From: a phage
Assembly (NCBI GenBank): GCA_026204955.1
Contig: GCA_026204955.1_4545.1
Length of the DNA stretch: 44,324 nt
Reading direction: 5' to 3' (one strand)
The notes below the pieces were generated by a model, which did no database searches, was not told where the DNA came from, and saw nothing but the letters and a program-made list of their open reading frames with translations. Below, piece after piece: positions 1-44,324 of the stretch; positions within the stretch are counted from its first letter, which is position 1; every line of letters starts with the position of its first letter. The translations under genes and the position numbers were made by a program.

Positions 1-67
1 ATAAGGATTGTTTTAAAATCGCTGATACAATACCAATCGGCAACTGCATAAAAAAGGGGACTGCATA

Positions 68-2710
68 ATGGCAGATCAAGCAGCAGGCATCACGCTAAAG
101 GTCGATGCCTCGCAAGTAAAGACAGCTAATACCGCGCTGGATTCGTTCGCGCAGAAGTCTGAGAACACAGAACGGAAAGTCAAGAAATTAAACGACACCC
201 TAGGCAACTCGAAAAAGGTTACGAGTGACGCCGCGGGCGGGATGGAAAAGATAGCGACTGAATCGCAGCGTGCCGCCGACGGCATGACGAAGCAGGAGCG
301 ACTCGCCAGCCGCTTGGGCATGTCAACCAAAAACCTGGGCTTTGCCTCCCGAAATGCCGCATTCCAGTTACAGGATATAGCGGTCACGCTTGAGATGGGT
401 ATGCCGGTGCACCGCGTTATGCTCCAGCAGTTGCCGCAGTTAACCGGGGCGTTTGGTGGCCTTGGTAACACGCTGCGTTATCTTGCTGGCCTCCTCGGCC
501 CTGTTGGGATCGGCCTTGCGGCACTATCGGCAACTTTAGGCGTCGGGGTGGCGGTTACGACCCGTGCAGAAAACCAGGTCGCAGCGCTGAATAAGACGCT
601 GACGCTATCCGGCAATATCTCCGGCCTCACCGCTAACCAGATCCTTATGCTGTCGGAGAACGCGGAGCGCATGGGTGGGTCATTCCGCAAGACGCGTGAC
701 ACCATTCAGTCTCTCGCGGCGGCGGGCGTGAAAGCGGGTGCGGACTTCGGCGCGCTGGCTAAGATCGTTAATGACTTTGCAAAGGTGTCTGGGCAGCCGA
801 TTGAAGATGTGGTTGAGGCGGTGGCGAAGTTGTCCAACGACCCGGTAGGCGGCTTGCGCGCACTGGCGGACAGATACCACGTCGTAACCGAGGCACAAAT
901 CCAGCAGGTGCAGTCTCTGGTGGATGCCGGTCGTGAGACTGAAGCGGTGGCGCTGGCTAACAAAACAGCCTCGGCGTCGTTCTCGGAAATGACCAAAGAA
1001 GTTAAGGCCAACATGGGCACGCTTGAGCGGTCTATGGCTGCGGTCACATCGGCAGCGAAATCTATGTGGGACGCCATTCTTGATATTGGTCGCGCGCAGT
1101 CCTCAAATGAATCTGAGATGAAAGCGCGTGAGTCCTTGCAGCGCCTGACCACGGCGTACTATGCCGAGATGAGAGCGGTCAATGCTTCAGGTGGGGTAAT
1201 GACCGAGGCACAGAAAGCACGTATTAACATGCTTTATAGCGAAATGGTCGCCCAGGAGAAAGTAGTCGCATCGCTCACCCTGCGCAACCGTGCGGAGCGT
1301 GAAAACGCCAACGCCGCGGAACAATCAGCGAAGGCGAACGAGGAGGCCAACCGCACCGCCCGCGACCGCGCCGCGTTCGAGAAGGAATACGCCACCAACG
1401 CTAAGAAGAGCGCCGATGAGATCGCCCGCCTCAATTTGCTGAATAAGCGCGGCGTGATTGACGAGAAGGAACTGGCTGAGGCGGTGAAGCAGGTCAACGA
1501 GCGTTACAAAGACCCCGCACCGAAGAAGGCCGCGGCTGTTCGCGTGGATGCCGGGCTGAAAATGCTGGAAGTCGCGCGAAGCGAATTAGCCCAGCTTCGT
1601 GAGTCTGGAAAGCAGATCGAAGCCAACGCATCGACGCAGACCCGCACGCAACGCGCGCAAGCGGCCCTTAACAAGCTGATTGCCGACAACGAGCAGTTAA
1701 TCGCTGCGAGCAAAGAAAGGGCACTGACGGCAGCAGAGAAGCAGCAATTAGTCGAGTTCGGGCGCGTGAAGGAAGTACGCGAGCAGATCGTCGAAGAAGC
1801 CAAATTGCTGGACGCAAAAGAGAAGCAGGTCAAGGCGCACGCGCAGATCGACGCCTTCGTTAAGAACCAGAACGCCGAGCTAAAAGCCACCGCGGCGGGC
1901 TATGCGCTTTCCACTCGCGAAGCGGCAAACCTGCGTGAAGAATTGCAGCTAATTGACCGCCTGAAGCGGGTCGGAGCTAACGATACTGATATTGATCTGG
2001 CGGTATCTAAGCTGCGCGAAGTGCAGGAAGCACAGACCGGTGCTAACGCCTCGCTATGGGATGGCTTCAGCCGCGGGCTTAAGGATAGCGTGGATGAAAT
2101 GGGTAACGGCTACACGCAGATGACGTCACTCACAAAATTCACGTTCGGCGCTATGCAGGACACGATGAACGAGTTTTTCGAGACTGGCAAGCTGAACGCA
2201 AAGGATATGGTTAAGTCCATCCTGAGCGAATTAATCAAGCTGGCTACCTCGCAGGCATTCAAGTCCATCGTTAGCGCTTTCGGAGGCGACGGCGGCAAAA
2301 ACGGATTGTTCGGCGCTATCTTCTCTGGCATAACTAAGAATGCGGACGGAGGAGCGTACGCAGGGGGCAATCTCGCGGCCTATTCGGGGCAAGTGGTAAG
2401 CAAGCCCACCTTTTTCAGTTACGGCGTCCAGGCGTTCGCAAAGGGCGCGGGATTGATGGGGGAGGCCGGACCCGAGGCCATCATGCCACTGAAGCGCGGC
2501 CCGGACGGCAAACTGGGCGTTGCCGCTGCCGGTGTAGGCGGAGGGATGATTGTAACGACCAACGTTAACATGGGGACCGGTAAGACGGATACCAGTGTTA
2601 GCGGTCCAGACCCGCGCACCGCGCAGGCGTTCGGAAAGCAAATCACCGAGTCGGTCAAGGCCGAGATCGTGAAGGCGACGAAACCGGGTGGTGTACTTTA
2701 CAAACGATGA
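68..2710 (+). CDS. tail tape measure protein
   Basis: 880-aa ORF, helix-prone Ala/Gln/Glu-rich with Gly-rich C-terminus; sits immediately upstream of lambda M/L/K/I/J-like tail genes; RBS AGGGGA upstream of ATG 68. Confidence 0.75.
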   Translation: MADQAAGITLKVDASQVKTANTALDSFAQKSENTERKVKKLNDTLGNSKKVTSDAAGGMEKIATESQRAADGMTKQERLASRLGMSTKNLGFASRNAAFQLQDIAVTLEMGMPVHRVMLQQLPQLTGAFGGLGNTLRYLAGLLGPVGIGLAALSATLGVGVAVTTRAENQVAALNKTLTLSGNISGLTANQILMLSENAERMGGSFRKTRDTIQSLAAAGVKAGADFGALAKIVNDFAKVSGQPIEDVVEAVAKLSNDPVGGLRALADRYHVVTEAQIQQVQSLVDAGRETEAVALANKTASASFSEMTKEVKANMGTLERSMAAVTSAAKSMWDAILDIGRAQSSNESEMKARESLQRLTTAYYAEMRAVNASGGVMTEAQKARINMLYSEMVAQEKVVASLTLRNRAERENANAAEQSAKANEEANRTARDRAAFEKEYATNAKKSADEIARLNLLNKRGVIDEKELAEAVKQVNERYKDPAPKKAAAVRVDAGLKMLEVARSELAQLRESGKQIEANASTQTRTQRAQAALNKLIADNEQLIAASKERALTAAEKQQLVEFGRVKEVREQIVEEAKLLDAKEKQVKAHAQIDAFVKNQNAELKATAAGYALSTREAANLREELQLIDRLKRVGANDTDIDLAVSKLREVQEAQTGANASLWDGFSRGLKDSVDEMGNGYTQMTSLTKFTFGAMQDTMNEFFETGKLNAKDMVKSILSELIKLATSQAFKSIVSAFGGDGGKNGLFGAIFSGITKNADGGAYAGGNLAAYSGQVVSKPTFFSYGVQAFAKGAGLMGEAGPEAIMPLKRGPDGKLGVAAAGVGGGMIVTTNVNMGTGKTDTSVSGPDPRTAQAFGKQITESVKAEIVKATKPGGVLYKR

Positions 2711-25130: not shown

Positions 25131-25460
25131 ATGAATGTAAACGACGCAATCGAAATGTTAACGAAGACTGTTTGCAGTGAGACAAGCCGGTCATGGGCTT
25201 ATACAGATGCCGTGGGGGCGGTGTTATTTGAAATCGAACGTCTGCGCAGTGTCGAAAAAGAATTGCGCGCGAAGCTGGAATTACTCAACGGTACGGCGGC
25301 CAGCAAGCTGCAAAAGCACAATGAAGAAATGGAAGAATACAAAAAACAGGTTATCCGTTTGCGCGCCGAGGGAAAATCGTGGGCGATGATTGCCGAGTTG
25401 ACCGGAATTAATCAGAGCACAGTGCGCTCCTGGGTACGCAATAATAAAACTTCTAAGTAA
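25131..25460 (+). CDS. HTH-domain DNA-binding protein (putative regulator)
   Basis: 109 aa; coiled-coil-like N-terminal region; C-terminal helix-turn-helix GKSWAMIAELTGINQSTVRSWVRN; first gene of rightward operon downstream of TTGACA-17-TAGTTT promoter. Confidence 0.5.
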   Translation: MNVNDAIEMLTKTVCSETSRSWAYTDAVGAVLFEIERLRSVEKELRAKLELLNGTAASKLQKHNEEMEEYKKQVIRLRAEGKSWAMIAELTGINQSTVRSWVRNNKTSK

Positions 25461-25470
25461 GGCCACGGCA

Positions 25471-27735
25471 ATGAGCTTGATTAAATTCGCTGTAACAAAA
25501 CCCGCTAAAAAAGGCGAAAAAGCCAGGGCGGAAAACTTCCAGATGACGACCGATGAGTTTTTCGAATTTATCAAAGATGCGAAAGAAATCTCCTCGGTGC
25601 ATATCAACAAGACGGAAGATAAAGCCGAGTATGCGCGCCGCAAGCGTAAGGCCGATGGCATCGTGGCGTATACCAGTGACGGATTGCGCCGCAAGACCAG
25701 TGCCGTGGACCGCTCGATCCTGTTCTTCGATATTGACCGCACCGACACCCGCACCCTGCGCCGCTGCCGTAGGGCGTTCATCGACGCGGGTCTGGAACAC
25801 GTATTTCACACCACCACCGGCGACCGCCACCCGCTGAAGAGCGGCACGCGTTGCGCCCGTTTCCTGGTGCTCACTGACAAGCCTGTACCGGCTGAAGACC
25901 TGGGCCGCGTCCAGTATGCACTATTACACCAACTGGGCCTGTCAGATGTGGACTTCGATGATTGTACGAAAGACACAAACCGCCTGATGTACCTGCCACA
26001 CCAGCAGTCCGTTATTAAGTGCCATTATGGCAAGCGCGCCAATGTGCGTCGTCTACTACGTCGGGCGGACAAGCTGGGGGTGGAAAAAGAGGAAGTACGC
26101 CGCGAGCTTACCAAGGGCGACGACGCAGTGGCAGACGGCATTCTGGACTGGTGCTTCCAGGCCGGATTCGAGGAGTTATCTTCTGGTCGCGGTTATGAAG
26201 TGCCGTGCCCGAACGAACATCTGCACAGCGGCGAAGGGTCGACGGCTATCATGGTCAAGGATGGCGAGATCCGTTTCAAGTGTATGCACACCGGCAACGA
26301 GTGTTGCTCGGAGCTAAATAGACACCAGCACCTTGCGCTACGTCTCATCGGGATACCGGACCACCTGAACGTCGAGCCGCACAACATGTCACGTAAGCAA
26401 ATCTCCGCCATCCTCCCGGGGCTGGACGACGAGGAAGTCGAATCCTTATATGAACATATTGTTGATGCGGTTGGCGACGGCGAAGAATACGGCGTGTGCA
26501 CCGATGCGGATCTGGATAACGAGCCGGTTGCGCTGTTCAGTAAGCACGACCCGATTATCGAGGGGTTGGTTAACTTTAAATCAACCTGGTATATGGCGGG
26601 TGAGTCGAACATCGGTAAATCGTTCTACGTGCTGGGGCAAATGGGTGCGGTTGCCGCGGGGATTCCGTTCGGTGGCGCGAAGGTCGTCCAGTCGCACTGC
26701 TTTTATTTCGACGCGGAAGGCGGCGAAGCCTCCAACCAGCGTAAGGAAGCCCTGCAGATCAAATATGAGCACGACCTGGACAAGCTGCACATTATCGATC
26801 TGCAATCACGCGGCTGGGATATCACCAGCAAATCAGGCTTGCGCGAAGTTATCAGCTTTATCAATCGCACAGCTAACGGGGAGCCGGTTGGCCTGGTGGC
26901 ATTCGACTCACTCAACCAGACTGTTGCGTTGCGGTCCGCCGATTCTAAACCGTTCGACGAGAACAACGCCAGCGATATGGGTGAAGTGGTCAAAGCGCTG
27001 AAGGCCATTGCGGAAAATACAGGCGGCAGTGCGGGCGTCATCCACCACCCGGCAAAAGGTGCAAACGGCAGCAGATCTCCCCGTGGGTCCGGCGCGCTGC
27101 ATGGCGCTGTCGATTCTGCGTTCTTCCTGGAGCAACCGGACGACAATCAGCCGGGCCAATTGAACCTGTATCACGAAAAGGCACGTAACGGCATCAAGCA
27201 AGCGCCGCGCGGCTTCGTCCTGCTCAAGTGCAAGGTTAAGGTGGATCTCCGCAAGTCCGAAGCGTTCGAATCACACCAGTCCACCAGCACCGGGCCTGAC
27301 TTCGGCGACGTGGTTGCCGGTTGGGACGTCAAGCCAATTGCATCCACGCCACGCGACGAGACTCTTTATCTCGTACCGGTCGCCCTGGCACCGTTCGCCA
27401 TCGAACAGGCGAAGGCCGCGGGCAAGGCCGCAGTTAAGGATGAGAACGCCGCAGGACCGCGCAACGAAAAAGAGAAAGTGCTTTATGCGGCGCTGGAAAA
27501 ACTGATGGAAGATAACCCGGACCATACCGGATTCAGTAAATCGGCAATCGTCCGCCAGGCGGGATTGGCAAAAGGTGGCACATCGACGAAGGCAATCGAC
27601 GATATGATCGAGCGCGGCGTACTCGGTTTTTATACAGACCCGCACACCGGGGCCATCTACGGGTCGTCGAATATCGTCATCAAAACGAATATACCCATCA
27701 CGCTTTCGGCGACCGATGACGACTTAAAAGATTAA
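25471..27735 (+). CDS. primase/helicase (AEP primase-polymerase-like N-terminus + P-loop ATPase C-terminus)
   Basis: 754 aa; FFDIDR resembles AEP motif I (hhhDhD); Cys/His cluster CPNEHLH...CMHTGNEC; Walker A GESNIGKS and Walker B-like LVAFDSLNQ. Confidence 0.6.
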   Translation: MSLIKFAVTKPAKKGEKARAENFQMTTDEFFEFIKDAKEISSVHINKTEDKAEYARRKRKADGIVAYTSDGLRRKTSAVDRSILFFDIDRTDTRTLRRCRRAFIDAGLEHVFHTTTGDRHPLKSGTRCARFLVLTDKPVPAEDLGRVQYALLHQLGLSDVDFDDCTKDTNRLMYLPHQQSVIKCHYGKRANVRRLLRRADKLGVEKEEVRRELTKGDDAVADGILDWCFQAGFEELSSGRGYEVPCPNEHLHSGEGSTAIMVKDGEIRFKCMHTGNECCSELNRHQHLALRLIGIPDHLNVEPHNMSRKQISAILPGLDDEEVESLYEHIVDAVGDGEEYGVCTDADLDNEPVALFSKHDPIIEGLVNFKSTWYMAGESNIGKSFYVLGQMGAVAAGIPFGGAKVVQSHCFYFDAEGGEASNQRKEALQIKYEHDLDKLHIIDLQSRGWDITSKSGLREVISFINRTANGEPVGLVAFDSLNQTVALRSADSKPFDENNASDMGEVVKALKAIAENTGGSAGVIHHPAKGANGSRSPRGSGALHGAVDSAFFLEQPDDNQPGQLNLYHEKARNGIKQAPRGFVLLKCKVKVDLRKSEAFESHQSTSTGPDFGDVVAGWDVKPIASTPRDETLYLVPVALAPFAIEQAKAAGKAAVKDENAAGPRNEKEKVLYAALEKLMEDNPDHTGFSKSAIVRQAGLAKGGTSTKAIDDMIERGVLGFYTDPHTGAIYGSSNIVIKTNIPITLSATDDDLKD

Positions 27736-27841
27736 ATTCTGCGCGTATTGGTTGCCATTTTGGGTGTTTTTAACTGGTCGCATTGGTTGCCGTGTAGTGT
27801 AAATATAGTGAATAGTTATGCAGTTTTATTGCATAAAGTAA

Positions 27842-27944
27842 GCGGGACAAAAAGCGGGACAAACAAGGGGCGGGACAAAGCGGGATAGCACCCCAGTCCC
27901 GCCCCGGATGACGCGGCCTGGAGAGGAGCGGGACAAGCGGGACA
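27842..27944. repeat. iteron array A: GCGGGACA repeats (ori-like region downstream of primase/helicase)
   Basis: GCGGGACA at 27842, 27854, 27870, 27928, 27937; variant GCGGGATA at 27880; inverted GTCCCGCC at 27896-27903. Confidence 0.6.
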
Positions 27945-28158
27945 AACCCCAGTCTTTCAGACTAGACGGGGGTCAACGGCCCCCCTCGTCTGAGACTGCA
28001 TAAAATCCGGGGATTGCAAAATACACGGCAGCATGATGCGTATTGCGGTCGTTGATGAACTAGGCAACCAATGCGGGTTGCATTATGCTGAGTGAAAAAT
28101 GCAGTTTGCAGTCACAGCAGATAGCGATCAACTTTTTCATGCGCGTGATTAATATTGG

Positions 28159-28187
28159 TTGCATTCACCCCGGCACCCTGCTATATT
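28159..28187 (+). promoter_or_regulatory. promoter for 28216 operon
   Basis: -35 TTGCAT (28159-28164) within ATTGGTTGCAT, 17-nt spacer, -10 TATATT (28182-28187); a second ATTGGTTGCA overlaps the -10 and start region. Confidence 0.45.
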
Positions 28188-28215
28188 GGTTGCACACCAA
28201 CATGAGGACTGAACA

Positions 28216-37956: not shown

Positions 37957-38469
37957 CTACAAACGCATCGGCTTGATAACAAGGAAGGCACCGCCTTTGA
38001 AAAGCACACGTGTCGCCTTGTCTACTCCCTGAAATTCCAGTTTTAAGCTATCAAACTTACGGTCGAACAATTTAGCAATTTTGCAGGCGTCGGACAGGTA
38101 TTCCCCGGCAAACCCTATAGCCTCCACTTTAGCGCTGTCGAAAGACGTAACTCTACGCCAGTCTGGGAATCGGCCGTCTACGATCTCTACGGGTATGGTA
38201 CCGATTAATACGTCTTTACTATCAAAGAACGCAGCGGATGTGCCGTCTATGTTGCAGTATTCGAATTTAGTAGGTAAGCGGCCTTTAATTGCTACTATTT
38301 TACTTTCACCTTCGGGAACAACCGCGGACCCGCAGAACAAACGATGACCGTCGGTGGCCACGATGAATCCTTTCTCGTCGAAAAACACACCATTCAGATA
38401 GTACCGCACGTCATTAGTTGCGGCGCACATCATAGCGGCTTTAAGATCGGCATAGTTAACTTTAATCAT
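37957..38469 (-). CDS. truncated DNA polymerase III beta sliding-clamp (DnaN) homologue
   Basis: Preferred ATG 38469 (GAGGA RBS) within track ORF 37957-38601. Segments [41 protein letters not shown] and C-terminal LVIKPMRL recalled to match E. coli DnaN [42 protein letters not shown] and C-terminal VVMPMRL; only about 169 aa versus about 366 aa. Confidence 0.6.
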   Translation of the reverse strand: [170 protein letters not shown]

Positions 38470-38490
38470 TGTCATTTCCTCATGTTGGTA

Positions 38491-38514
38491 TGCAACCAAT
38501 ATATTGCAACCAAT
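38491..38514. repeat. tandem TGCAACCAAT x2 in divergent region between clamp-like and scaffold genes
   Basis: TGCAACCAAT at 38491-38500 and 38505-38514, adjacent to the RBS of the clamp-like gene. Confidence 0.45.
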
Positions 38515-38533
38515 CCACCAATGCAAGCAAATT

Positions 38534-38561
38534 TTGCGATTATTTTTATCGCTGATAATAT
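38534..38561 (+). promoter_or_regulatory. promoter for scaffold/capsid genes
   Basis: -35 TTGCGA (38534-38539), 16-nt spacer, -10 TAATAT (38556-38561). Confidence 0.35.
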
Positions 38562-42592: not shown

Positions 42593-43309
42593 ATGGGTTA
42601 TCAGCTTCCCAACGGGTCCAGCGTCCAGATTGGGTCCGTATTAGGCAAAGGCATCGCGGTTACGGCAGCGACTAACGTCGCCGCGTCAATCACTGACAAA
42701 ACGAAAGGTTGCATTATCACCTGCGCAACCTCTCATGGTCTGGTAGTGGGCGACGTGGTGATGTTCACTAAAACTCCGTGGGTCCGTGCGCTTAACCGCG
42801 CGTTCATCGTTGGTAAAGTGGAGACTAACTCCATTACGCTAGCGGGATTCGACACCTCGGATGAGACAAAATATCCGGCGGGCGCTTTTGCAGTTGGCAC
42901 TCCTGGCGAAGTGGTTAAGGTGTCGGGCTTTATTGACTTCCCGTACATCACTAACGTTGCCGTGTCTGGCGGGGACCAGCAGACGACTACCTTCCAGCCG
43001 TTGCAGCTTAACACCGCAATCAGCATTAACACTACGAAAAATCCGTGGGTGCAGACTTTCACCTTCACCCATGACGTGGAAGACCCGATCCGCCCAATTC
43101 TGGAAGACCTGGATGAAACACAGAAAACCACTGTGATCCAGTTCACTAACCCCGCGGCAGCAAGCGGCAAAGGTGAAATTCGTATTTACCCGGCGAAGGT
43201 ATCTTTCCAGAAGATTCCGTCCGCTGAAGTAAATAACGTGGAGACGGTGCAAGTAACTTTGACCATGCAGGCGGATATGGTCATCTACCTCAAAAGTTTG
43301 GGCGCTTAA
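42593..43309 (+). CDS. major tail protein (lambda V-like)
   Basis: 238 aa, Thr/Val/Gly-rich beta protein preceding the G/GT chaperone pair; followed by a hairpin terminator as in lambdoid V-G junctions. Confidence 0.6.
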   Translation: MGYQLPNGSSVQIGSVLGKGIAVTAATNVAASITDKTKGCIITCATSHGLVVGDVVMFTKTPWVRALNRAFIVGKVETNSITLAGFDTSDETKYPAGAFAVGTPGEVVKVSGFIDFPYITNVAVSGGDQQTTTFQPLQLNTAISINTTKNPWVQTFTFTHDVEDPIRPILEDLDETQKTTVIQFTNPAAASGKGEIRIYPAKVSFQKIPSAEVNNVETVQVTLTMQADMVIYLKSLGA

Positions 43310-43326
43310 ATAGCAAGTGTTAATAT

Positions 43327-43349
43327 GGGGCCAGCACGGCCCCTTTTTT
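43327..43349 (+). terminator. terminator or attenuator between major tail and chaperone G genes
   Basis: GGGGCC-agcac-GGCCCC followed by T6. Confidence 0.55.
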
Positions 43350-43365
43350 ATTGGAGAATATTACA

Positions 43366-43728
43366 ATGGCTAAAACACCACTCTTCACACTAGACCCTAA
43401 GCCGACCTTTAAGCTGCCGATTGAGATCCCGCGCCCTGGTGAGAACGAACCGGGCAAGATGACGTTTACCGTCCGCCACCGCCCGATTGACGAGTTTTCG
43501 CAGACCATGCAGGAAACGGAACGAAAGCTGTCTGAATATGACGACAACGACCCTGATGGCTTTAACGTTATGGTTGAAGCCATCATGCACGTCGCTGAAG
43601 GCTGGAACCTGCCGGACCAATTCAACGCTGAGAACGTCCGCCGCCTGGTAGTAAACTACCCGCGCGCTTTCGGCGTGTTTCACACCTCGTACTATCTCGA
43701 ACTGATGGGATTGCGTGAAAAAAACTAA
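43366..43728 (+). CDS. tail assembly chaperone G
   Basis: Preferred ATG 43366 (MAKTPLFTL; GGAG RBS) within track ORF 43351-43728; ends with slippery A-run just before stop. Confidence 0.6.
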   Translation: MAKTPLFTLDPKPTFKLPIEIPRPGENEPGKMTFTVRHRPIDEFSQTMQETERKLSEYDDNDPDGFNVMVEAIMHVAEGWNLPDQFNAENVRRLVVNYPRAFGVFHTSYYLELMGLREKN

Positions 43729-44042
43729 TTGAGGCGGCGCGGCGCTTTTATGGTCCGCCGCCACCCTCAGAATATTTAGCCGCAAGTTTATGGGGAGCGG
43801 CGCCAGAAGATGTATATCCCCCAGTTGCGCTATGGCCCGACAATGCGAAGGTAGTGGCTGTATTTGCTGATTGTTCCACGCAATGGCGCACTGGATTCGG
43901 TGGCGCATACGGCATCGACTACGGTGTTCTGGAATGGTTGTTTAAGATGCACGGCATCGAAAACGAGCAACGAGCGTTTAAAGATATAAAGCTGATGGAA
44001 CGAATCGCGCTCGAGGAAATGGCGCAACAAAACCCCGCATAA
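43366..44042 (+). CDS. tail assembly chaperone GT fusion (programmed -1 frameshift product)
   Basis: Heptamer A AAA AAC at 43719-43725 in the G frame; the -1 frame is open from 43722 to TAA 44040-44042 and encodes ...WPDNAKVVAVFADCSTQWRTGFGGAYGIDYGVLEWLFKMHG..., a gpT-like tail. Confidence 0.5.
43719..43725 (+). other. slippery heptamer for -1 programmed ribosomal frameshift (G to GT)
   Basis: A AAA AAC in the G frame, 1 nt before the G stop codon; downstream -1 frame open for about 105 codons. Confidence 0.5.
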
Positions 44043-44046
44043 TGAG

Positions 44047-44312
44047 GCGGGACAGGCGGGACGTCCCCGTTTCGTCCCGCTTGTCCCGCCCCTGTAAAAC
44101 TGCATACTTACTCACTTTATTTGCTTAAATTAAAAGCGGGACAGGCGGGACGTCCCGGTCCGACACCCCCTGAAAAGTGCTTACTTATGCATTTTTAGTG
44201 CATAAAACAAACGGGACAAAAAGCGGGACAGACCAGGGGCGGGACAAATCGGGACGTCCCGCCGTCCCCATCAGTGTTGCCGGGGGTTTCAGCCGATCGG
44301 GACAGCGGGACA
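44047..44312. repeat. iteron array B: GCGGGACA / GGGACGTCCC repeats, paralogous to array A
   Basis: GCGGGACA at 44047, 44136, 44223, 44239, 44305 plus variants; palindromes GGGACGTCCC at 44058, 44147, 44251; inverted TGTCCCGCC at 44082-44090; block 44205-44324 aligns with 27830-27950. Confidence 0.6.
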
Positions 44313-44324
44313 ACACCCCAGTCT

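Follow-up and report, generated by a model that had tools for sequence, protein, structure and literature searches.

Satellite phage P4 encodes an alpha primase-helicase with a C-terminal DNA-binding domain, and its octamer iteron occurs in two clusters, ori and crr, both of which act in cis. In the pri-rep-ori arrangement of the pathogenicity islands of Staphylococcus aureus (SaPI), 6-12 copies of a short iteron lie immediately downstream of the initiator-helicase gene, in opposite-facing sets around AT-rich DNA, and the iterons of this origin are read by the C-terminal winged helix of Rep, which loads itself (PMC9371898). An origin stem-loop lies downstream of the primase-helicase gene (ORF904) of pRN1 and still works when it is relocated (PMC4234260).

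The repeats considered here are also on record in a close relative. The portion of the GenBank record of Sodalis phage SO-1 that was consulted marks two repeat loci, 'region A' and 'region B', as direct, inverted, palindromic and mutually similar, and these are the same two loci as ours. The repeat regions themselves are not new, being already in the SO-1 record; neither a functional assignment nor comparative evidence nor a paper was found with that annotation in the consulted portion. The literature searched (subscription journals lay outside its scope) yielded no description of the CGGGACA motif, of both repeat regions or of a link to helicase genes. What is new here, we believe with moderate confidence, is an iteron origin of a self-loading helicase that has been duplicated into a tail operon.

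Results

Genome organization

The window, by which we mean the whole stretch of DNA that was analysed (44,324 bp), represents a complete Dhillonvirus genome; its ends meet in the spacer between the T and tape-measure genes, with about 45 bp absent at the junction. The phage is a virulent siphovirus of E. coli similar to HK578, JL1, EP23 and SO-1, of the genus Dhillonvirus. The region 43300-44324 is matched by 161 phage records, 155 of which match over at least 80% of the region at 80-90% identity. Based on Pfam, PHROG and annotated relatives, the gene order is as follows.

68-2710, plus strand: tape-measure gene (TMP_2 and Tape_meas_lam_C), the downstream flank of the spacer
from the tape-measure gene to about 12.5 kb, plus strand: tail genes
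12.6-25.2 kb, minus strand: replication block with SNF2 helicase, family-A polymerase and DUF2800 nuclease
25131-25460, plus strand: small HTH gene
25471-27735, plus strand: helicase-primase gene (AAA_25)
27736-28215, plus strand: 480-bp spacer 3' of the helicase-primase gene (IGR-A), with iterons at 27843-27944, a palindrome at 27951-27996, the pac terminus at 28115 and a TTGGTTGC-type promoter-like site at 28155-28192
between IGR-A and G/T, in order: small genes, lysis genes, terminase, head genes and major tail gene
42593-43309: major tail gene
43351-43728 (G) with the T extension ending at 44042, plus strand: tail assembly chaperone (Phage_TAC_4 and relatives' annotations), the upstream flank of the spacer
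44043-44324 plus 1-67, plus strand: T-to-tape-measure spacer (IGR-B)

Directly 3' of the major tail gene and upstream of G/T, a canonical intrinsic terminator (GGGGCC-AGCAC-GGCCCC, then TTTTTT) is found at 43327-43343. The motif TTGGTTGC is found repeatedly, with TAnnnT 18-19 bp further on, ahead of genes of either strand (28155 and 24932 on the plus strand; 15451, 10205, 18408 and 38530 on the minus strand), and none of these sites was called sigma-70 by a consensus scan. The pairing suggests, from the letters of the genome, a phage-specific promoter element. A role for TTGGTTGC as a pac motif or iteron of Dhillonvirus was considered and rejected; a -35-region element is preferred because the motif recurs with its TAnnnT partner at gene starts on both strands. 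Two near-identical promoter-plus-leader blocks of the form TATATTGGTTGCAyACCAACATGAGGA...ATG were also noticed, one at 28155-28215 (plus) before the first gene after IGR-A, the other at 38450-38540 (minus) preceding a minus-strand RusA-like gene amid the head genes, a possible moron according to the SO-1 record.

Repeat architecture of the tail-operon spacer

Reading the sequence alone had pointed to an iteron array behind G/T, and the array is real. The 6-mer core CGGGAC occurs 33 times in the window, with 14 copies in the 44043-44324 part of IGR-B and six at 27843-27943 in IGR-A. Likewise, the window has 15 copies of GCGGGACA, a 7-fold enrichment over the 2.1 that shuffled sequence would give, and none of 100 shuffles reached 15; six of its copies lie in 44043-44324 and five in 27842-27944. 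The three 10-bp palindromes of the same reading correspond to GGGACGTCCC, which starts at 44058, 44147 and 44251, is confined to IGR-B and would be expected 0.04 times. Its long inverted repeat at 44046-44090 was found as well, with 18-nt arms (44046-44063 and 44073-44090) that are 94% complementary, and as single-stranded DNA this segment folds at -23.9 kcal/mol (z = -7.3). The left part of IGR-B forms a dyad of about 150 bp with arms at 44095-44118 and 44174-44197 around 44136-44157, in the order cluster 1, AT-rich arm, cluster 2, AT-rich arm, cluster 3. The parts of the spacer are listed below.

44043-44090, plus strand: cluster 1, a palindromic quartet of CGGGAC iterons (two forward, then two inverted) directly 3' of the T stop, with GGGACGTCCC at 44058-44067; inverted repeat I2
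44091-44135, plus strand: AT-rich segment 1 (CTGCATA...TTGCTTAAATTAAAA), the left dyad arm; inverted repeat I1, arm 44095-44118
44136-44157, plus strand: cluster 2, GCGGGACAGGCGGGACGTCCCG, the dyad centre, with GGGACGTCCC at 44147-44156
44166-44211, plus strand: AT-rich segment 2, the right dyad arm, with TTATGCA-N8-TGCATAA at 44185-44205; start of the block paralogous to 27807-27841
44212-44261, plus strand: cluster 3, direct CGGGAC(A) iterons at 44212, 44224, 44240 and 44250 and an inverted copy at 44256, with GGGACGTCCC at 44251-44260; paralogous to 27843-27901
44262-44297, plus strand: G+C-rich spacer, paralogous to 27902-27927
44298-44324, plus strand: a pair of direct iterons at 44298 and 44306, and ACACCCCAGTCT as left foot of a long palindrome cut by the window end
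1-67, plus strand: remainder of the spacer, with direct repeats CTGCATAAA...CTGCATAA (45, 62) that span the ribosome-binding site and touch the tape-measure ATG at 68

Clusters 1, 2 and 3 thus place oppositely oriented iterons around two AT-rich segments of about 45 bp each. A second motif family is common to both spacers (44185-44205, 27816-27836, 40-67 and 27993-28020): TTATGCA-N8-TGCATAA stands before the direct iterons, and direct CTGCATAAA repeats follow the palindrome, the last IGR-B copy overlapping the tape-measure start codon. Seven of the 14 genome copies of TGCATAA fall within the two spacers. The resemblance between bases 40-67 and 27995-28015 noted earlier coincides with two sites of this family, 40-67 and 27993-28020.

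Comparison of the two spacers bears out the suggestion that the array is paralogous to the one near the primase. Positions 27807-27955 and 44176-44324 share 117 identical columns of 151 (77.5%), and the local alignment score of 124 lies far above that of shuffled controls (18.6 +/- 2.1). The IGR-A segment 27929-27996 folds as one long imperfect hairpin and is the intact paralogue of the palindrome at the IGR-B junction. The IGR-A array starts at 27843, 108 bp after the helicase-primase stop at 27735, so that the IGR-A paralogue lies immediately downstream of the initiator gene, and the IGR-B copy lies elsewhere, 16 kb away; the same iteron is present in two separated clusters of one genome. 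In some Dhillonviruses (UDS3lw, SECphi4, TheodorHerzl, JL1 and the bov phages) the 130-bp IGR-A module of iterons and palindrome is tandemly duplicated, which adds about 175 bp.

Conservation of the spacer and the window junction

IGR-B was aligned across 18 relatives, one of which (L016) ends inside the spacer, leaving 17 that span the junction. In all 17, the T stop, IGR-B and the tape-measure ATG are contiguous, in agreement with the proposal that the window ends join across this element, and the comparison with related phages that had been advised shows the repeats to be kept. These 17 relatives also share about 45 bp, TTCAGACTAGACGGGGGTCAATGGCCCCCCTCGTCTGAGACTGA, between 'CCCAGTCT' (the window end) and 'ATAAGG' (the window start), which the window lacks. 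The absent DNA is the interior of the long imperfect palindrome, whose paralogue is intact at 27951-27996. A repeat-rich spacer of about 350 bp had been predicted from the window; the spacer exists, but with the missing 45 bp its full length is about 395 bp. The gap probably arose where the assembly ended in a palindromic repeat that has two copies, since it is very unlikely that a circle would by chance be opened exactly at a 45-bp deletion. Other assemblies that break inside IGR-B are L016, PNS1 and CHD5UKE2.

Column identity across the relatives is 0.90 at iteron positions, 0.85 in the rest of IGR-B and 0.88-0.90 in flanking coding DNA, and the indels of IGR-B (1, 11 and 13 nt) are not multiples of three. 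On this sequence evidence IGR-B is constrained and non-coding. Lengths from iteron to iteron are kept among relatives while the sequences between them vary, and cluster 3 in particular combines near-invariant iteron cores with variable spacers of fixed length. Cluster 1 keeps its inverted-repeat arrangement even where its sequence differs. Cluster 2 has either the window form or CGGGACAG-GGGTG-CTGTCCCG, and the inverted repeat is accordingly kept in both.

Packaging and genome termini

A 10-nt 5' cos end of sequence ATCTTAAGGG is claimed in the paper on EE09 (record OR756193). An exact copy of this cos sequence is missing from the window, and the EE09 record begins among the early genes; cohesive ends at the junction were rejected on these grounds. 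Headful packaging has been reported for the Dhillonviruses Opt-212 (PMC9022532), UDS3lw (PMC13348001) and BF9 (PMC10059673), which also speaks against IGR-B as a cos site. PhageTerm analysis of BF9 gave one significant terminus, at record position 28168 on the minus strand (T = 0.53, p = 8e-65; PMC10059673). Aligned to the window, this terminus is 28115, with rightward packaging and the cut between ...tgcagtttgcagtca and CAGCAGATAGCG. Six deposited genomes open at this very nucleotide, namely UDS3lw and, drawn from 60 sampled records, Pandora71, Zar3M, 101114B2, PTXU06 and BMA1. The EE09 claim conflicts with the headful or pac evidence of four other Dhillonvirus reports and with this shared record start.

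The pac end falls towards the right of IGR-A, about 120 bp past the palindrome and 4.7 kb upstream of the small terminase gene, and the sequence there has no counterpart in IGR-B. No peak in IGR-B is among the top PhageTerm peaks of BF9. IGR-B is therefore unlikely to be the pac site of a headful phage, the preferred end mapping elsewhere. The published BF9 analysis places the end in the other spacer, and the idea that IGR-B is a packaging site or holds the genome termini finds no support in the BF9 terminus, the six record starts or the headful mode.

Repeats beside related helicase-primases

The repeats that accompany related helicase-primases differ between lineages. In Cornellvirus Shemara, whose helicase-primase is 43% identical, GGGGAGA occurs in direct and inverted copies right after the stop codon, where seven of its nine genome copies are found (L008 38167-38400). 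The T and tape-measure genes of Shemara overlap, leaving it without a second spacer, and this agrees with the earlier remark that a long spacer before the tape-measure gene is unusual. An uncultivated lineage with 48% identity has the repeat ACTCGCAA/TTGCGAGT directly after the helicase-primase stop (L287 12299-12600). In Eiauvirus eiAU the spacers of the two syntenic sites are long (about 900 and 1,100 bp) and have in common a module of GCAACCAAC arrays and a CGCCCCG-type motif, the tail-operon spacer also having a GACGGGGG..CCCCTCGTC palindrome; no CGGGACA arrays were found in the eiAU spacers. As the repeats of Shemara, the 48%-identical lineage and eiAU all differ, the repeat changes with the helicase-primase lineage, and where a second spacer exists it has the same lineage-specific repeats as the first.

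The GCAACCAAC arrays of eiAU are the same motif as the Dhillonvirus promoter-like TTGGTTGC, and the eiAU record was opened inside its GCAACCAAC array. In the eiAU T-to-tape-measure spacer of about 1.1 kb, the repeat module is preceded by a minus-strand ORF that is annotated without a function (L028 42365-42718). Outside Dhillonvirus and Eiauvirus, IMG/VR matches to the GACGGGGG..CCCCTCGTC palindrome look like chance.

CGGGACA arrays in other viral genomes

IMG/VR was scanned for two, then three, closely spaced copies of CGGGACA, with the reversed 7-mer ACAGGGC searched in the same amount of DNA as a control. Among the matches listed, a homologue of an AAA_25 helicase was present in 36 of 110 non-Dhillonvirus loci with triple CGGGACA, versus none of 119 control loci. 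Triples of the reversed 7-mer were also numerous, owing to coding tandem repeats, and the periods of the control arrays were multiples of 3, whereas 10-12 bp were the commonest periods of the CGGGACA arrays. In 28 non-redundant IMG/VR cases, again among the matches listed, the distance from the helicase stop codon to the array is 0-50 bp. The contigs with such post-helicase arrays range from 35 to 70% G+C, and the loci include L124, L127, L159, L163, L185, L203, L212, L237, L246 and L272.

Some of the array-associated helicases are fusions of Prim-Pol with AAA_25. Of five further genes examined that end at CGGGACA arrays, one is VapE-like, two are DUF5906 (D5-like SF3), one is DnaB_N with AAA_25, and the fifth gave no Pfam match. 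The arrays follow a common plan in which 3-6 copies in direct orientation are succeeded by a G/C-rich palindrome with inverted copies on its flanks (e.g. CGGGACAccACCCCtttaGGGGTGTCCCG), and their parts are those of the Dhillonvirus module (direct iterons, ACCCC..., palindrome) and of IGR-B clusters 1 and 2. None of the other window proteins (HTH, small terminase and others) was common to the CGGGACA loci, and a second array did not turn up in any other CGGGACA element.

The C-terminus of the window helicase-primase is modelled as a winged helix (about residues 666-739, approximately nt 27466-27687) and is the proposed reader of the iterons. Comparison of the C-terminal domains of CGGGACA-associated helicases with the window protein by hhalign and BLASTP gave no significant similarity, and homology of the reading domain is consequently not claimed. 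No homologues were returned for the C-terminal 175 residues on their own, while the full-length query gave homologues. The window protein matched no PDB sequence.

Discussion

We regard IGR-B as probably a second, dispersed copy of a phage iteron-type replication-origin module. Four functions had been offered by the sequence-only reading, and a second origin is the one that the evidence favours, because CGGGACA arrays accompany initiator helicase genes, the iterons are lineage-specific, and the C-terminal domain of the helicase-primase is a predicted winged helix. The right part of IGR-B is paralogous to the spacer after the helicase-primase stop, and IGR-B is present in the 155 of 161 matching records and is as conserved as the flanking coding DNA. 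Binding of CGGGACA by the helicase-primase and initiation at IGR-B are predicted from sequence. Under the proposed mechanism, the winged-helix domain would bind the iterons, which form direct arrays at roughly one helical turn and inverted pairs around palindromes and AT-rich segments; hexamers of the helicase-primase would load at the palindrome or at AT-rich DNA, the primase part would prime, and the phage family-A polymerase would extend. The copy directly after the helicase-primase gene (27.8-28.0 kb) would be ancestral, and IGR-B would work in cis, whether by firing as a second origin on its own or by cooperating with IGR-A in the manner of P4 ori and crr.

Several observations count against this origin reading. 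The IGR-B copy is far from the helicase gene (16 kb), the other CGGGACA elements showed no second array, Cornellvirus has one array only, which suffices, and the dissimilar C-terminal domains of the CGGGACA-associated helicases make a shared reading head no more than a candidate. With the pac terminus 120 bp from the paralogous module, some link to packaging may exist. GC skew follows gene orientation only and is uninformative on origins.

Among the described systems, SaPI is matched in its multiple short (5-8 bp) iterons, in their opposite orientations flanking AT-rich DNA and, as predicted by modelling, in an initiator with a C-terminal winged-helix domain. Unlike SaPI Rep, the Dhillonvirus protein is an AAA_25/RepA-type helicase fused to a primase region, its arrays contain a G/C-rich palindrome as well, the module is present a second time within the tail operon, 16 kb away, and the system is known here from sequence alone. 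The likeness to P4 ori and crr lies in the two separated clusters of one iteron in the same genome (IGR-A and IGR-B); the P4 iteron sequence differs from CGGGACA, and the helicase-primase was rejected as a homologue of P4 alpha (D5/VapE-type SF3), Pfam reporting AAA_25 only and no P4-alpha or D5-type domains. For pRN1 ORF904 and Bordetella phage BIP-1, a stem-loop just after the primase-helicase-winged-helix or replication gene resembles the present module (PMC4234260). However, ORF904 is a prim-pol with an SF3 helicase, no iteron arrays are described for it, and the hairpin here is shorter (about 45 bp).

An alternative is that the arrays and TGCATAA repeats bind a phage regulator and that the first hairpin attenuates transcription after G/T, together fixing how much tail-shaft protein is made relative to tape-measure and tail-tip proteins. 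The location of IGR-B inside a co-directional operon, the annotation of the first hairpin as a terminator in the HK578 and WF5505 records, the CTGCATAA repeats that cover the tape-measure ribosome-binding site and start codon, and the small HTH protein encoded at 25131-25460 would all fit such transcription control. We nevertheless consider it unlikely, as no plus-strand terminator-like or sigma-70-like site was called in IGR-B, the canonical terminator is already in place after the major tail gene, and the HTH protein is absent from unrelated CGGGACA loci in which helicases are present. In the window the hairpin of cluster 1 has no T-run, the cluster being followed by CCCTGTAAAAC; this and the lack of a plus-strand call led us to reject IGR-B as an intrinsic terminator. 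Regulator binding sites, another of the functions first offered, may form a second layer, an additional regulatory role being suggested by the TGCATAA motifs that overlie the tape-measure ribosome-binding site, but regulation is not favoured as the main function.

Improbable to a greater degree is a structured RNA on the transcript, of the put/nut-like antitermination type or a protein-binding leader. Both copies have the same orientation relative to transcription and the palindrome stem is conserved among relatives while its loop varies freely, which counts in favour of an RNA element. Yet an Rfam scan of the full spacer from a relative returned nothing at the gathering threshold (two sub-threshold matches to miRNA models were on the opposite strand), many of the iterons are found facing both ways and arranged as symmetric quartets, and the 10-12 bp periodicity and the position after helicase stops in unrelated elements point to a role at the DNA level. 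That IGR-B is a packaging element, be it another site recognized by the small terminase (pac or pseudo-pac) or the ends of the genome, is the faintest prospect of all, for although the mapped pac end is 120-290 bp downstream of the paralogous module and assemblies break inside IGR-B (the window and the three named above), such breaks are expected at a two-copy repeat with a palindrome, CGGGACA arrays accompany helicase and not terminase genes, and the headful mode, the single BF9 terminus, the six record starts and the absence from IGR-B of the sequence around the 28115 cut all oppose it.

Returning to the origin-module reading, a broader generalization is offered tentatively and could well prove wrong. 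CGGGACA iterons with a G/C-rich palindrome might represent a widespread, undescribed origin class that follows initiator helicases of at least three unrelated families (AAA_25/RepA-type, VapE-like and DUF5906/D5-like). Dhillonviruses and Eiauviruses might have acquired a duplicate of such an origin in their tail operon, and a virulent siphovirus would then possess a two-site (ori plus crr-like) replication system.

Conclusions

If the origin reading is true, Dhillonviruses (about 160 sequenced coliphages, several of them in defence-system and therapy work) gain two candidate origins, and origins of virulent siphoviruses have rarely been mapped. The origin and the pac site, 120 bp away from the IGR-A copy, would then also be distinct elements. 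The occurrence of one 7-mer after helicase genes of different families may provide a simple signature for finding origins in uncultivated viral contigs, and poses the puzzle of a single iteron being recognized by initiators so unlike one another. The origin reading also bears on phage engineering, since, if it is true, replication may be crippled when the 'empty' T-to-tape-measure spacer is removed or exchanged.
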